Shown: positions 5,809-27,372, counted from the first letter of the stretch. The stretch: 64,000 bases of DNA from Escherichia phage Ec_YwIITB1 (PQ356294.1); one strand, 5' to 3'. The notes: generated from the letters alone by a model not told the origin. Made by a program: numbers and translations.

Positions 5809-7370
5809 ATGACTATCAAAACTAAAGCTGAACTTTTGAACAAATGGAAGCCATTACTGGAAGGTGAAGGTTTACCGGAAATTGCTAATAGCAAACAAGC
5901 GATTATCGCTAAAATCTTTGAAAACCAGGAAAAAGATTTCCAGACAGCTCCAGAGTACAAAGACGAAAAAATCGCCCAGGCGTTCGGTTCTTTCTTAACA
6001 GAAGCTGAAATCGGTGGTGACCACGGTTACAACGCTACTAACATTGCTGCTGGTCAGACTTCTGGCGCAGTAACTCAGATTGGCCCAGCTGTTATGGGTA
6101 TGGTACGTCGTGCTATTCCTAACCTGATTGCTTTCGATATTTGCGGTGTTCAGCCGATGAATAGCCCGACTGGCCAGGTATTTGCACTGCGTGCAGTATA
6201 TGGTAAAGACCCAATCGCTGCTGATGCTAAAGAAGCATTCCACCCAATGTATGGTCCAGATGCAATGTTCTCTGGTCAGGGTGCTGCTAAGAAATTCGCG
6301 CTAGCACACAAACTACTGTAAGTTGGAACCATTTACACCTATTTCTTCCAGGAAACTGGTACTGTATATCTGCAAGCTACCTCTAGTTAAAGCAAATTGA
6401 TACAAGTGCTTCTGACGCAGCTAAATTAGATGCTGAAATTAAGAAACAAATGGAAGCTGGCGTATTGGTAGAAATCGCTGAAGGTATGGCTACTTCTATC
6501 GCTGAACTTCAGGAAGGTTTCAACGGTTCTACCGATAACCCATGGAATGAAATGGGATTCCGTATCGATAAACAAGTTATCGAAGCTAAATCTCGTCAGC
6601 TGAAAGCTGCTTACTCTATCGAATTAGCACAAGACCTCCGCGCTGTTCACGGTATGGATGCTGATGCTGAACTGTCTGGTATTCTGGCTACCGAAATCAT
6701 GCTGGAAATCAACCGTGAAGTTGTTGATTGGATTAACTACTCAGCTCAGGTTGGTAAATCTGGTATGACCCTGACTCCGGGTTCTAAAGCTGGTGTATTT
6801 GACTTCCAGGATCCGATTGATATTCGCGGTGCTCGCTGGGCAGGTGAATCCTTTAAAGCTCTGTTGTTCCAGATTGACAAAGAAGCAGTTGAAATTGCTC
6901 GTCAGACCGGTCGTGGTGAAGGTAACTTCATTATCGCTTCCCGTAACGTAGTTAACGTTCTGGCTTCAGTTGATACTGGCATTTCTTATGCTGCACAGGG
7001 TCTGGCTACCGGCTTTAACACTGATACTACCAAGTCAGTATTTGCTGGTGTTCTGGGTGGTAAATACCGTGTATACATCGACCAGTATGCTAAACAGGAT
7101 TATTTCACTGTAGGTTATAAAGGTCCGAACGAAATGGATGCTGGTATTTACTACGCTCCATATGTAGCTCTGACTCCGCTGCGTGGTTCCGATCCGAAGA
7201 ACTTCCAACCGGTAATGGGATTCAAAACTCGTTACGGTATCGGTATCAACCCATTTGCAGAATCCGCTGCTCAGGCTCCGGCTTCTCGCATCCAAAGCGG
7301 TATGCCTTCTATTCTTAATAGCCTTGGTAAAAACGCTTACTTCCGCCGTGTATATGTTAAAGGTATCTAA
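5809..7370 (+). CDS. 23: Major capsid protein gp23; reading frame broken by several small indels between about 6290 and 6450 in the sequence as given (probable sequencing error)
   Basis: ORFs 5809..6321 and 6450..7370 match T4 gp23 N- and C-terminal parts; intervening residues (TQTTV, VGTIYTYFFQETGTVYLQ, KQIDTSASDAAKLDAEIKK) are found in shifted frames. Confidence 0.9.
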
Positions 7371-22640: not shown

Positions 22641-22644
22641 CAAT

Positions 22645-22668
22645 GGGGACCGGTCCCCATATTTTTAT
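22645..22668. terminator. Bidirectional terminator between convergent genes 54 and the alt cluster (palindrome GGGGACCGGTCCCC + T-run)
   Basis: 14-nt perfect palindrome followed by ATATTTTTATTT. Confidence 0.6.
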
Positions 22669-22955
22669 TTACGGAATGATATAAAAGCAGCAACTGAAGC
22701 GACTAAACTGTCTTCAATATAAACTTCAATTTTTACCGGAGCTTCTGACTCAAATTTACCTGTTACTACACCTTGAAAAATGCTTTCAGTCTGTTCTGGC
22801 TTTGAAAAATTTTCAGAAGGAAAAATTCCGAACTTTTTATCTGTTCCAAAAATTTTGATAAATTCATCATAAACTGCTTCATTGAAAGCGTTATCAGCAG
22901 GAATAACGCCTTCAACTACAAGTTCTTGACCTAAAAAGCGTAAAGAAGATTTCAT
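22665..22955 (-). CDS. Hypothetical protein (alt.-3-like position)
   Basis: 96-aa ORF downstream of alt paralog; early promoter-like element immediately upstream. Confidence 0.6.
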   Translation of the reverse strand: MKSSLRFLGQELVVEGVIPADNAFNEAVYDEFIKIFGTDKKFGIFPSENFSKPEQTESIFQGVVTGKFESEAPVKIEVYIEDSLVASVAAFISFRK

Positions 22956-22962
22956 TTTGTGT

Positions 22963-23016
22963 TCCTCATGTTATGTCAGTAAGACTATTATAACACAGCA
23001 CGAGGGACTTGTAAAC
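22963..23016 (-). repeat. 54-bp dispersed repeat (copy 1) comprising early promoter plus 5' leader
   Basis: TCCTCATGTTATGTCAGTAAGACTATTATAACACAGCACGAGGGACTTGTAAAC; second copy at 38653-38705. Confidence 0.7.
22987..23016 (-). promoter_or_regulatory. Early (sigma70-type) promoter: -35 GTTTAC, 18-nt spacer, -10 TATAAT; part of a 54-bp repeated promoter-leader element
   Basis: Minus strand reads GTTTACAAGTCCCTCGTGCTGTGTTATAAT; followed by leader with GAGG and ATG of ORF 22665..22955. Confidence 0.6.
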
Positions 23017-25073
23017 TACATCTTGAACTTTTTAGACATTCCGTTGATGTTAACCAAAGAAGCCAAGATTTGAGAAACTTCGTTTTCCTCTTCTTTTGAT
23101 TCTTCTACAAGGAATTGATTAAACCCAGCCATTGGACGAACTTCACCAGTTTCCATTAGATGATCGCCATCATATACCGATTCTTCTAATTGTTCAGAAG
23201 GAGGAACGATTGTGCCTTCAATTAGATACTTGTTATAAGCAGTTTCTTTCATCATGTACGTGCTCACTTTATTAATCTTCAGCAAAATTCCACGTGGTAG
23301 AATAACTTCAGCTTCTGATGGAAATCCTGATAAATGACCTGGAACGATAACTTTGATTCGCTCAGCCCCTTTAATTACCATACCTACGCTAGCTTCAGCA
23401 TCTTCATTAGCATATGCAGAATGACTACCCATATGCATTAAATCTTCAGCATCAACAGAACCTTCTCCTTCACCAGAAAATACTGCGCCGGAATCATCTA
23501 GAGCCATATAGTTTTTACCATGCTCACCGAAGATATTTGGTTTAAGCGATGTTGATACGAAGTTCTTGAAATAGAACATTTTATTTTCAATATTATGGCG
23601 TAAAGTTTTAAAAGTAACTTCTTGTCCACGATAAAGCGTAATTCCCGGAGGAAGAACTGAACCTTTGGCAAAGGCAGAATCCAGCGTCTCGATGTGTTTA
23701 ATAGCTCGTTCCATATATTCTTCACGGGTAGAATCTGGTTTACCCAAGAGGAACGAGTTCATTTCAACATATGAATCTGCACAATAATCTTCAATTACAA
23801 CAGACTCAGCCTGAGTTAATCCTTTTGGAGTTACTTCAGTGCTTGCGTATTCATATGCCTGAGCAGCAGATTCATTAATCAATTTATAAATGCCATTCAT
23901 GACAAATTGAATAATAGCTACCTTTTCGTCTGGCGTAGCTTTAGAACCTTTAACTAAATCATTGATAATTTTCTTAATAACATCAAAGCTATTAGAAATA
24001 TTAATGTCAGCGAGATCGCTCAAAATTTTATCGGTTTTATAATCAAAAAATTCTTTATTCTTTAAATATTCTTGAGAACCTTGATATGTTATATCGCTCT
24101 GCAGTCTGATAGACGGATCGCGTAAACGTGCATGGGCCAATGCAATATGATTTCGGAGGCTTTCTAGTTCATAATCGTTAGATTTAAAACGAGAAGCACT
24201 TCTCATACCACCGATAGCTCCTTTGCTGAAGTTGGAACCAATCTGAATAACGCCAGAGTTCATTGGTCCTTCTGCTTTATATACCGGAACTTTAGATTCA
24301 AACTCTTGATATTTCTTGGCGGCGAAGCTATCGCCCTGAAGTGAAGCATCGACAGTAGAATATTGAGCTTGCGCTGCCAATCGACGACTAATTTTAGTTT
24401 TCTGAATAACAGCTTGATCCGTGCGCTTATCATTTTCTAAAGCAATAGAAGCAGCAACAGCAACAGCTTTAGGAACAGCATTACCTGTTTTAACATCTAC
24501 ATAAACATCACCAACCTTTGATTCAACTTTTGTGAATAACTCAGTTGAAATAGGAGGTACACCTGGAATGTCTTCTAAATTGGCATTTTTACGGTAAACC
24601 ATAATATATGCATACTTTTTATCATAATCCCAGATTTCCTTTAAAAGAACATATCGACCTGCTCCTTTAGTACGTACTAAACGGTCAGCAATAACTTGCA
24701 TCTGACGAGCTGCGCCATTTGTTTTACTTTTTAGTACGCGGAATAGGCATGCATCAATTTTATACTGTTTCATTGTTTGAAGAGCAGTATCAAAAACCGC
24801 ATTAATGACACCAATTGGATTTCCACCCAAGTTTTTAAGTTTAACTAATGATAGTTTCTCATTAACACCTATCATTACGATATGCATCATTTTATCGCCT
24901 GGCTTAACGTTTTTATTTGTATCACCGCCAGAGGTGTATGTACAAAATCTAAATCCAGGAAGCACACTTTCTTCGCCGGCTTGAATAGCAAAAATTTGAG
25001 GTATTTTATGCTTAGGATTTAAGTTAACAACCGGCGCCGAAGCGCCGTCAAATAATTCTGTAATAAGTTCCAT
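23016..25073 (-). CDS. Alt-like mono-ADP-ribosyltransferase paralog (intact R-S-EXE motifs)
   Basis: 685-aa ORF; N-terminus MELITELFD...; motifs YRGQ, FVSTSLKPNIFG, SEAEVILPRG; paralogous to adjacent alt. Confidence 0.8.
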   Translation of the reverse strand: MELITELFDGASAPVVNLNPKHKIPQIFAIQAGEESVLPGFRFCTYTSGGDTNKNVKPGDKMMHIVMIGVNEKLSLVKLKNLGGNPIGVINAVFDTALQTMKQYKIDACLFRVLKSKTNGAARQMQVIADRLVRTKGAGRYVLLKEIWDYDKKYAYIMVYRKNANLEDIPGVPPISTELFTKVESKVGDVYVDVKTGNAVPKAVAVAASIALENDKRTDQAVIQKTKISRRLAAQAQYSTVDASLQGDSFAAKKYQEFESKVPVYKAEGPMNSGVIQIGSNFSKGAIGGMRSASRFKSNDYELESLRNHIALAHARLRDPSIRLQSDITYQGSQEYLKNKEFFDYKTDKILSDLADINISNSFDVIKKIINDLVKGSKATPDEKVAIIQFVMNGIYKLINESAAQAYEYASTEVTPKGLTQAESVVIEDYCADSYVEMNSFLLGKPDSTREEYMERAIKHIETLDSAFAKGSVLPPGITLYRGQEVTFKTLRHNIENKMFYFKNFVSTSLKPNIFGEHGKNYMALDDSGAVFSGEGEGSVDAEDLMHMGSHSAYANEDAEASVGMVIKGAERIKVIVPGHLSGFPSEAEVILPRGILLKINKVSTYMMKETAYNKYLIEGTIVPPSEQLEESVYDGDHLMETGEVRPMAGFNQFLVEESKEEENEVSQILASLVNINGMSKKFKM

Positions 25074-25076
25074 GAT

Positions 25077-27131
25077 TTATCCTTGAACGAACTTGTAAGG
25101 CATGTTTGTAATATCTATGCAAGACGCAATAATTCCAAGAGATGATTCTACTTTTTGTTTAACATTTGATGAAACAAATGATGCAAAGTCAACTCTGTCT
25201 TCTATTTCAATATCATCTGTCATTGCAACTACTTCACCAGTTTCCATTAGACGATCACCGTCATAAATTACTGATTCGGTGAGTTCTTCGGTAGTCATAA
25301 CTTCAGCTTGAATAAGCTTGTTGTTAGTTTTAGCTGTTCCATCATTGTAAGATGCGTCGGTTATTTTATTGACTTTGACCATCAATCCACGCGGCAAAAT
25401 GACTTCCATTTCATTTGAAGGCGCTAAACTTCCACCTGGTAAAACAACGTTGACTTTATCAGCCCCAGTAATAACCCATCCAATTCCAACTAAATTATCG
25501 CTAGAATTAACAAGTCCTTCATCGTTTTTATCGATAGAAATGTTTAGACGCTTTTCGTCTGGTAAAACACCCACAGCTGAATCAGTCATCCAAGTACCAA
25601 AAATGTTTGGATATAATGATGTTGATACAAAATTTCTAAAATAAAAAACTCGATTTTTTACCAATGCTTCATATATTGAAGGAGCAGTCATGCTTTGAGC
25701 ACGATAAACTGTAATGCCTTCTGGTATACGGTCACCATTTTCAAAGGCTGAATCTAAATTATTTATCGCAGATTCAATTTCTTTTTCACTCATTACCTCA
25801 TATCGTTCTGGATTATATAATCCCAAAAGAGCATTATTCATGTCTACATATCCTGAACCTACGTATTCACGAATTCCGCGTTTTTGTGCCGGTGTGTATT
25901 TAGATGAATCTTTATTTTCGACTATAGAATGCAATGACCATCCAACGGTAAGAGCATATCCACGTAATTCTCTTCGAATAATCTTTGTTTTTATTGCATT
26001 CCAAGAATTTTGCACTAACTCATTCGCAGCATCTTGATTTAAATGCGAATGCTTGTTAATATTTCTTTCTAACCAAGCACCTTTATATTTTTCTAAAGTA
26101 TCATCAACTATAGAAGCAATAGTTTCTAAAGTTTTTATTGAAGTAATAGATTCTTTTCGTAATCTTTCTAAAGCTTTATTTTTTATTTCTGCATTAACAT
26201 CAGATTCTTTATCTTCAGGAATTATAGAAGCTTCTCTGAATGCCATTCCAGCTGTAACACTATTAAGAGCATTCTCTAATGCAAATCCTGAAGTAGAAAT
26301 AACAGTTAATTCGTTAGCATCAGAAATTAAAGGCGCGTCAGCGGGTTTATTTAATTCTGCTGCTGAAGCCTCAAATTTTTGAAACATTGGTGTTTCAAAT
26401 CTAGAAGATTCTAATGATTGACTTTGTGCAATTGCTCTACGGGAAATTTTAACTTTAACGATTACAGCTTGGTCAGAACGTTTATCGTTTTCTTGCGCAA
26501 TAGATGCAGCAATGGCCTCATTTTTAGTTACTTGAGCTCCGGTATCTTTATTGATATAAACATCGCCGACTTTCGATTCAACTTTAGTAAAGAGCTCTGT
26601 ACTAATTTCAGGAACTCCTGGAATGTCTTCTAATGATACATTTTTGCGATGTATAAGAATATATGCATACTTTTTATCGTAATCCCAGAGTTCCTTAAGA
26701 AGGACGTATCTGCCACCTGAACGACTACGGATAAGTCTATCAGCAATAAGTTGAATTTGACGAGCTTGACCAGCAGTTTTAGACTTAAGAATACGGAGCA
26801 TGCAGGCATCAATTTTATACTGACGCATCGTTTGCATTGCAACAGTAAAAACTGAATTGATATAATTAATTGGGCTTGGACCGAGACCTTTTAATTTAGC
26901 GATTGAACCTTTAGCAGTTAATGTAAAAGGAACAATATGCATCATTTTATCGCCCATCTTTAAATCGCGATTAGTATCACCTCCAGATGTGTAGGTACAT
27001 AAACGAAAACCTGGTTGTTCAATTGCGTCATCAACATGAACTGAAAAAATTTGCGGTATTTTCTTCTTTGGATTTAAGTTTGTAATCGGAAGAGTAGTAT
27101 CTTCGTCAAATAATTCTGTAATGAGTTCCAT
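25077..27131 (-). CDS. alt: Alt ADP-ribosyltransferase (packaged, modifies host RNA polymerase)
   Basis: ORF 25077..27134; start at MELITELFDEDTT...; motifs YRAQ, FVSTSLYPNIFG, NEMEVILPRG; matches T4 Alt. Confidence 0.9.
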   Translation of the reverse strand: MELITELFDEDTTLPITNLNPKKKIPQIFSVHVDDAIEQPGFRLCTYTSGGDTNRDLKMGDKMMHIVPFTLTAKGSIAKLKGLGPSPINYINSVFTVAMQTMRQYKIDACMLRILKSKTAGQARQIQLIADRLIRSRSGGRYVLLKELWDYDKKYAYILIHRKNVSLEDIPGVPEISTELFTKVESKVGDVYINKDTGAQVTKNEAIAASIAQENDKRSDQAVIVKVKISRRAIAQSQSLESSRFETPMFQKFEASAAELNKPADAPLISDANELTVISTSGFALENALNSVTAGMAFREASIIPEDKESDVNAEIKNKALERLRKESITSIKTLETIASIVDDTLEKYKGAWLERNINKHSHLNQDAANELVQNSWNAIKTKIIRRELRGYALTVGWSLHSIVENKDSSKYTPAQKRGIREYVGSGYVDMNNALLGLYNPERYEVMSEKEIESAINNLDSAFENGDRIPEGITVYRAQSMTAPSIYEALVKNRVFYFRNFVSTSLYPNIFGTWMTDSAVGVLPDEKRLNISIDKNDEGLVNSSDNLVGIGWVITGADKVNVVLPGGSLAPSNEMEVILPRGLMVKVNKITDASYNDGTAKTNNKLIQAEVMTTEELTESVIYDGDRLMETGEVVAMTDDIEIEDRVDFASFVSSNVKQKVESSLGIIASCIDITNMPYKFVQG

Positions 27132-27183
27132 CATATCCTCTCTAGTGTTTATTCTATTTATAAAATTAAAGGCCCGAAGGCCT

Positions 27184-27372
27184 TTAATAATCTATTGGTA
27201 AGAGAGTACGATATATTTCAAACTTTGGACCTTTTTCATAGGTATCAAATGTTTCTGTGAATTTATTATAAGCATATGCATCTATAAATTCAATCATAAT
27301 TTGTGATACAGAAGTAGAAACATCTCCACCTTCTTTTTGAGCCACGACAATTGTTTCTAAATAAGCTTTCAT
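27184..27372 (-). CDS. Hypothetical small protein
   Basis: 62-aa ORF, start overlaps ligase stop (ATGA). Confidence 0.5.
   Translation of the reverse strand: MKAYLETIVVAQKEGGDVSTSVSQIMIEFIDAYAYNKFTETFDTYEKGPKFEIYRTLLPIDY

Follow-up and report, generated by a model that had tools for sequence, protein, structure and literature searches.

A 64,000-nucleotide (nt) stretch of Escherichia phage Ec_YwIITB1 (GenBank accession: PQ356294.1), a Tequatrovirus (T4-like) genome segment referred to below as the window, was analyzed computationally. Two adjacent open reading frames (ORFs) of the Alt family of ADP-ribosyltransferases are situated on its minus strand, and sequence comparison identifies ORF B as the orthologue of T4 Alt and ORF A as the gene called 'alt.-2' or 'Alt2' in public records. 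ORF A probably encodes a second arginine ADP-ribosyltransferase that is made late, packaged in the head, trimmed by gp21, and injected, with targets that are likely to differ from those of Alt. The two genes, with positions counted from the first letter of the window, are as follows.

25077..27131, minus strand: ORF B, T4 Alt orthologue, T4-type allele, 684 amino acids (aa) from the second ATG
23016..25073, minus strand: ORF A ('Alt2', or full-length 'alt.-2'), second Alt-family ADP-ribosyltransferase, 685 aa

The initial annotation of this locus had described two intact, adjacent Alt-family genes, and ORF calling, the Pfam family PF03496, and BLASTP all bore this out, with a distance of 3 nt between the genes. 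It had also assigned 685 aa and the N-terminus MELITELFD to both products, which holds for ORF A; ORF B does begin with MELITELFD at position 27131, but its product is then 684 aa long. The 685-aa form of ORF B is obtained from the first ATG (25077-27134) and has the N-terminus MMELITELFD, and the second ATG is preferred by Shine-Dalgarno spacing. BLASTP analysis revealed 42% identity between ORF A and ORF B over their full length (E 5e-163), 93.6% identity between ORF B and T4 Alt, and 41% identity between ORF A and T4 Alt over residues 1-683. The PF03496 (ADPrib_exo_Tox) scores were 74.8 bits for ORF A and 122.1 bits for ORF B, against a curated cut-off of 23.4 bits, and both proteins were matched end to end by phrog_802, 'Alt-like RNA polymerase ADP-ribosyltransferase' (ORF A residues 1-685, E 3e-254; ORF B, E 1e-260). 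The NCBIfam search returned no match for either ORF, and a single-sequence search of solved structures returned none, so that no Alt structure could be reached by sequence. The following elements of ORF A could be located by motif, family alignment, and AlphaFold2 modelling.

23622..23633, minus strand: YRGQ (residues 481-484) with the catalytic Arg482, invariant in alignments of 25-27 sequences
23547..23555, minus strand: STS (Ser507-Thr-Ser509), placed by family alignments
23307..23315, minus strand: ExE (Glu587-Ala-Glu589), a motif typical of arginine-specific enzymes
24360..25055, minus strand: residues 7-238, alpha/beta N-terminal domain of the AlphaFold2 model, candidate head-incorporation domain
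23844..24359, minus strand: residues 239-410, helical middle region of the AlphaFold2 model, candidate target-recognition region

Residues R482, S507, S509, E587, and E589 were invariant across the 25-27 homologues, which cover both paralogue lineages, and a profile of the homologues places the arginine and the E-x-E motif on the catalytic residues of the solved C3cer and BECa. The counterparts in ORF B are YRAQ (476-479), STS (503-505), and EME (574-576); the catalytic motifs quoted earlier for the two ORFs were thus recovered at verified coordinates, and neither copy lacks its catalytic residues. Placement of ORF A in the Alt/VIP2 clade is indicated by the PF03496 match, the ordered R, S-T-S, and E-x-E motifs, and an ADP-ribosyltransferase fold. 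Its placement in the T4 Alt family (PHROG 802) is indicated by full-length collinearity, including the N-terminal ~240 aa, and by its position in the genome, downstream of a late promoter in the interval from gene 54/alt.-3 to alt.1/gene 30. Both proteins share the same order of an alpha/beta N-domain, a helical middle, a C3/Vis/Vip2-like transferase domain, and a C-terminal tail.

Within this common plan, conservation is highly uneven. The divergent central region reported earlier was confirmed by pairwise alignment, as identity falls from 67% at aa 1-238 to 19% at aa 239-410, and stands at 36% for aa 411-620 and 32% for aa 621-685. The catalytic-domain insert at aa 521-565, between the STS motif and the ARTT loop, retains 13% identity, and the ARTT loop ahead of the catalytic glutamates reads SGFPSEAE in ORF A and LAPSNEME in ORF B. 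In C3-like enzymes, such regions, including the ARTT loop, contribute to substrate choice. The divergence of the middle region, the ARTT loop, and the insert therefore suggests that the target set of ORF A is probably different from that of Alt.

The processing of T4 Alt provides the basis for predicting the fate of the ORF A product. T4 Alt is a prohead-core protein present at ~40 copies per head and ejected into the host with the DNA (PMC9026906), and the prohead protease gp21 trims it at ITE-6 and LTE-619 to 68.2 kDa (PMC5694885). The annotation of X15811 also gives processing of T4 Alt at ITE-6, and the mass recomputed for residues 7-619 was 68.2 kDa. The gp21 motifs ITE-6 and LTE-619 are present in ORF B, and the corresponding elements of ORF A are as follows.

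25056..25073, minus strand: residues 1-6, MELITE, predicted N-terminal propeptide, identical to that of Alt, motif ITE-6
23019..23189, minus strand: predicted gp21 site LEE-631/Ser, aligned with LTE-619, and 54-aa C-terminal propeptide (residues 632-685)

Motifs for gp21 were accordingly found at both ends of ORF A, as judged from sequence motifs alone. E631 is invariant across the family alignment, and the predicted local distance difference test (pLDDT) score of the AlphaFold2 model of ORF A is below 50 from residue 629. The mature ORF A protein is predicted to comprise residues 7-631 (625 residues, 69.1 kDa). The 67% identity of the N-domains would fit a head-incorporation function common to both proteins, and it is proposed that the N-domain and both propeptides are shared because the two proteins use the same head-incorporation route. 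It is improbable that ORF A is made late and left unpackaged, acting either in the producing cell or in a non-enzymatic role in head assembly. Such a fate would agree with the lack of direct evidence for packaging of ORF A and with the larger amount of DNA packaged by Alt mutants (PMC3012670), so that head space is limited; but ORF A has the same MELITE propeptide as Alt, a conserved LxE/S site, and 67% identity in the N-domain, and the invariant catalytic residues argue against a purely structural role.

The expression signals of the locus were found at the following positions.

27155..27162, minus strand: T4-type late promoter TATAAATA, 24 nt upstream of the ORF B start
25074..25085, minus strand: B-A junction, with an AAGGA Shine-Dalgarno sequence within the last ORF B codons, TAA, a 3-nt spacer, and the ORF A ATG

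From 16.4 kb to 32.7 kb, the minus strand holds no other copy of the TATAAATA element found upstream of ORF B; the whole window holds 18 copies of the T4-type late promoter box against 9.1 expected. Scans of the window detected neither a promoter nor a terminator between ORF B and ORF A. The single late promoter ahead of ORF B, the lack of a detected promoter or terminator between the genes, and the 3-nt spacer with its AAGGA sequence favour a late bicistronic reading, in which a late message most likely carries alt first and alt2 (ORF A) as its second cistron.

On this basis, the proposed course of events would begin with one late promoter giving a bicistronic message with alt (ORF B) and, 3 nt on, its old paralogue alt2 (ORF A). 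The ORF A product would be made late, incorporated in the prohead core, and cut by gp21 after ITE-6 and LEE-631 to yield a protein of ~69 kDa. This mature product would travel inside the head, be ejected together with the DNA, and then use NAD+ to mono-ADP-ribosylate arginines of host proteins during the first minutes of infection; its target set may possibly include host defence or toxin proteins. The suggestion made in the initial annotation, that the pair represents two packaged enzymes with possibly different host targets, appears reasonable, and it is better supported at the sequence level now by the shared late promoter, both gp21 motifs, the divergent middle region and ARTT loop, and the low ratio of non-synonymous (dN) to synonymous (dS) divergence of ORF A (dN/dS 0.04).

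The evolutionary constraint on ORF A was assessed in eight phages; an uninterrupted 685-codon ORF was present in this window and in 7 other phages. Across the 28 pairs, the mean dN was 0.007 and the mean dS 0.194, giving a dN/dS of 0.037. ORF A is under strong purifying selection. It is barely credible, therefore, that ORF A is a functionless, decaying duplicate or an assembly artefact. T4 bears exactly such a remnant, and clustered frameshifts in gene 23 mean that the record has errors; but no interruption of the ORF is seen here or in T2, T6, RB14, RB7, and others, where dS is 0.19 and dN 0.007, the segment occurs in 401 records, and sequencing errors break ORFs and do not make them. The decaying duplicate is effectively refuted by the dN/dS of 0.037, and the assembly artefact is ruled out by the same pair in hundreds of independent genomes.

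Alt itself evolves in another manner, as its dN/dS across phages was 0.30 compared to 0.04 for ORF A. At least two allelic forms of Alt could be distinguished: a T4-type form, shared by this window, T4, and DalCa, and a 697-698-aa RB14-type form, found in T2, T6, RB14, RB7, and Bas37. Comparison of the two alleles (window 25077-27131, minus strand, against locus L002, 5042-7135, minus strand) revealed 22-42% identity at about aa 250-450 and 26% at about aa 550-600, while the sequences were nearly identical elsewhere. In this window ORF A lies beside a T4-type Alt, whereas its orthologues in T2, T6, RB14, and Bas37 lie beside an RB14-type Alt. A preprint (10.1101/2025.11.20.689424) describes that T4 Alt aids evasion of Mokosh type I and that Bas37 Alt (bas37_0033) is no substitute for it, and this difference indicates that the Alt alleles differ in function. 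The near-frozen state of ORF A, set against the swapping of whole cassettes by Alt, points to different selective regimes for the two genes.

These observations also bear on the reading that ORF A is active and packaged but redundant with Alt, modifying the same targets (e.g., RNA polymerase alpha Arg265) as an extra dose or a back-up. Redundancy would be in keeping with the architecture, N-domain, and catalytic and processing motifs common to both proteins, with the loss of ORF A from the T4 lineage without obvious harm, and with the non-essential nature of Alt itself (PMC9026906). It is nevertheless considered unlikely, although less so than the unpackaged fate, because the middle region (19% identity), the insert at aa 521-565 (13%), and the ARTT loop differ between the proteins, because the lineages have been separate since before the Tequatrovirus/Dhakavirus split, and because a dN/dS of 0.04 for ORF A while Alt swaps cassettes points to different selective regimes.

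The age of the two lineages could be judged from Dhakavirus JS10, a phage of a different genus, which carries a tandem pair in matching order and with 3-nt spacing. Its downstream gene is the orthologue of ORF A, with a middle region 45% identical to that of A and 15-18% identical to that of B, and its upstream gene is the orthologue of ORF B. The A and B lineages have thus been distinct since before the Tequatrovirus/Dhakavirus split; the presence of the pair in JS10 dates the duplication before that split and makes two genes the ancestral state. The N-domains show a different pattern (window 24360-25073 and 26418-27131, minus strand; JS10 locus L016, 2330-6541). Within a genome, the protein identity was 67% for A and B (dN 0.29) and 66% for the JS10 pair (dN 0.31), compared to 42-46% between orthologues across the genera (dN 0.52-0.54), whereas the catalytic domains show the reverse and follow orthology. 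The N-domain pattern suggests that gene conversion took place long ago, or that the N-domains co-evolved with a head partner specific to each genome. Exchange between the paralogues is further visible in KAW1E185, where a single 685-aa gene (locus L003, 2981-5038, minus strand) follows RB14-type B as far as about residue 620 and then switches to A, its C-terminus being 95-100% identical to ORF A. Judged from its sequence, this gene is evidently the product of an unequal crossover in which the tandem paralogues recombined at the EVILPRG region that they share, and it represents one intact gene in which an ORF B body carries an interchangeable ORF A C-terminus.

The T4 genome retains a remnant of the second gene. 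The earlier description of T4 as having one full-length alt with small ORFs beside it proved accurate, so that the gene content at this locus differs between T4 and the window: the T4 record lists alt (682 aa), followed by alt.-1 (61 aa, NP_049810) and alt.-2 (67 aa, NP_049809), with a note in which alt.-1/alt.-2 are explained by duplication, long ago, of the beginning of alt. In T4, alt and alt.-3 are separated by 421 bp (locus L001, 5034-5454), and this interval was 96.6% identical to nt 1-348 of ORF A joined directly to its last 20 nt. Two lesions account for the T4 arrangement, namely the loss of one nucleotide from the A-run near nt 164, separating alt.-1 from alt.-2, and a 1,699-bp deletion with its ends in a 9-bp direct repeat, CTAAAAAGT. 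The two copies of the repeat in the window are as follows.

24726..24734, minus strand: CTAAAAAGT copy 1, left deletion end, ORF A nt 340-348
23027..23035, minus strand: CTAAAAAGT copy 2, right deletion end, ORF A nt 2039-2047

Moreover, phrog_23015 and phrog_15247 fit ORF A better than ORF B. The sequence comparison thus identifies T4 alt.-1/alt.-2 as pseudogene fragments of an ORF A orthologue, fragmentary in T4 at the same locus where the gene is whole here. Two natural isolates, vB_EcoM_F1 and pSe_SNUABM_01, have the same deletion junction. A laboratory artefact in T4 is ruled out by this identical junction, which indicates one old deletion event in a T4 sub-lineage.

Database comparison revealed that the pair is common, in disagreement with the rarity implied earlier. 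The 1,690-bp stretch of ORF A that is absent from T4 was found in 401 phage records at >=80% coverage (at least 80%), 321 of them at 95-99% identity, and ~506 records hold any alt locus; the second gene is thus carried by 401 of ~506 related records, by T2, T6, and RB14, and by JS10, and has already been annotated. Only 175 records match ORF B at >=80% coverage, which can be attributed to the allelic forms of Alt. T2 (BBF63359) and T6 (BBF63615) encode an intact 685-aa orthologue of ORF A with 98% protein identity. In RB14, deposited in 2009, the orthologue is labelled 'alt.-2 hypothetical protein' (ACP30838), in the BASEL phage Bas37 it is named 'ADP-ribosyltransferase Alt2' (QXV82013), and RefSeq records carry the label 'Alt-like RNA polymerase ADP-ribosyltransferase (x2)'. 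As early as 2006, Nolan et al. (PMC1524935) listed alt.-1/alt.-2 as paralogous alt duplications and reported a full-length duplicate in phage 44RR; fPS-65 (PMC7917993) carries both genes; and the 2026 Sextaphag paper (PMC13600099) described paralogues with 43.29% identity in 6phi13 and SHFML-11 and proposed functional divergence. The tandem arrangement and the idea of functional divergence are therefore already known and in print. The two-gene locus is the majority, ancestral, and already annotated state, and T4 is the derived exception.

In comparison with known systems, ORF A resembles T4 Alt in length, domain order, the R, STS, and ExE motifs, the MELITE propeptide, and the LxE/S site, and the late-promoter unit and genomic slot of the two are the same; it differs in its overall identity of 41-44%, in the middle region (19%), and in the ARTT loop and insert. 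The orthologues in RB14, Bas37, T2, and T6 and the SHFML-11/6phi13 pair are 685 aa long and ~98% identical, and the annotated full-length orthologues have neighbours and 3-nt spacing identical to those of this window, with no substantial difference beyond the Alt allele beside them. The C3, Vis, Vip2, and iota-CDTa toxins of the R-S-E type (PF03496) share ~20% identity with the phage proteins, which additionally have a 410-aa N-terminal extension and propeptides removed by a protease. Delivery also differs, as the phage proteins would use the virion (for ORF A, by analogy with Alt), whereas the bacterial toxins are secreted or rely on a binary toxin partner. T4 ModA and ModB belong, as does Alt, to the Alt/VIP2 clade of R-S-E transferases (PMC5512222). 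They are ~200 aa long, early, and unpackaged, and their genes lie outside the window.

Several points weigh against the proposal that ORF A is a second injected enzyme with its own targets. The packaging, cleavage, activity, and targets of ORF A are all inferred from Alt, and the L/I-x-E motif is short and present elsewhere in both proteins too. The virion proteome table of fD1 (PMC8309999) is illegible at g190-g202, and that preparation contained many non-virion proteins. Neither the fPS-65 paper (PMC7917993) nor PMC10698182 offered experimental virion proteomics. The literature search revealed no experiment on ORF A or any orthologue and no paper joining 'Alt2' with phage terms, and Nolan 2006, PMC13600099, and the HIDEN-SEQ preprint contained no functional data on ORF A. 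The text of the Bas37 transposon screen (10.1101/2025.11.20.689424) features alt (bas37_0033) and never alt2 (bas37_0032). Further, the T4 lineage, including the natural isolates F1 and pSe_SNUABM_01, is without ORF A, and the gene must therefore be dispensable on at least some hosts.

The surroundings of the pair could be resolved into the following features.

27184..27372, minus strand: alt.1, 62 aa, Pfam PF24647 'Phage blade protein' (E 5e-29)
27168..27185, minus strand: hairpin AAAGGCC-TTCG-GGCCTTT, overlapping the alt.1 stop codon, with a terminator annotated there in relatives
22987..23015, minus strand: sigma-70 early-type promoter TTTACA-17-TATAAT with TG, 11/12 matches, serving alt.-3
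22665..22955, minus strand: alt.-3 (DUF5498), final gene of the unit
22643..22660, no strand assigned: bidirectional terminator hairpin between gene 54 and alt.-3, annotated in relatives

The minus-strand genes at the locus are alt.-3, ORF A, ORF B, alt.1, and the DNA ligase gp30, and gp29, gp48, and gp54 follow in this order on the plus strand nearby. The hairpin at 27168..27185, which was not flagged by the terminator scan of the window, is the probable terminator for the early/middle unit upstream, and the hairpin at 22643..22660 is the predicted terminator of the late B-A-alt.-3 transcript. The near-consensus sigma-70 promoter for alt.-3 begins one base past the Alt2 stop codon.

Elsewhere in the window, the essential major capsid gene 23 (5809-7370, plus strand) is broken into two ORFs, one of 170 aa and one of 306 aa. 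The gp23 frame shifts back and forth over ~100 nt, especially at about 6295-6400; a stretch of 301 nt here corresponds to 305 nt in relatives and is only 90.9% identical to its best match. The breakage is probably due to errors of sequencing or assembly confined to this part of the record, or else to a defective genome.

The arrangement in the window is itself ordinary, and its value lies in serving as a reminder of a strongly conserved, probably injected, and uncharacterised T-even enzyme. The chances appear about even that the conserved core ADP-ribosyltransferase injected by T-even phages is Alt2 and not Alt, that Alt2 has one or more targets of its own, and that Alt is its fast-changing partner. 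If this were true, a target of Alt2 might be a defence system or some other factor of early infection, and Alt2 would have been overlooked in fifty years of T4 work because the T4 lineage had deleted the gene. The knowledge of virion-delivered ADP-ribosylation in T-even phages derives from T4, which is atypical here, and a second, very strongly conserved Alt-type enzyme is encoded by most of its natural relatives, among them T2 and T6 as well as many candidates for phage therapy; the modification targets of this enzyme may bear on host takeover or anti-defence.

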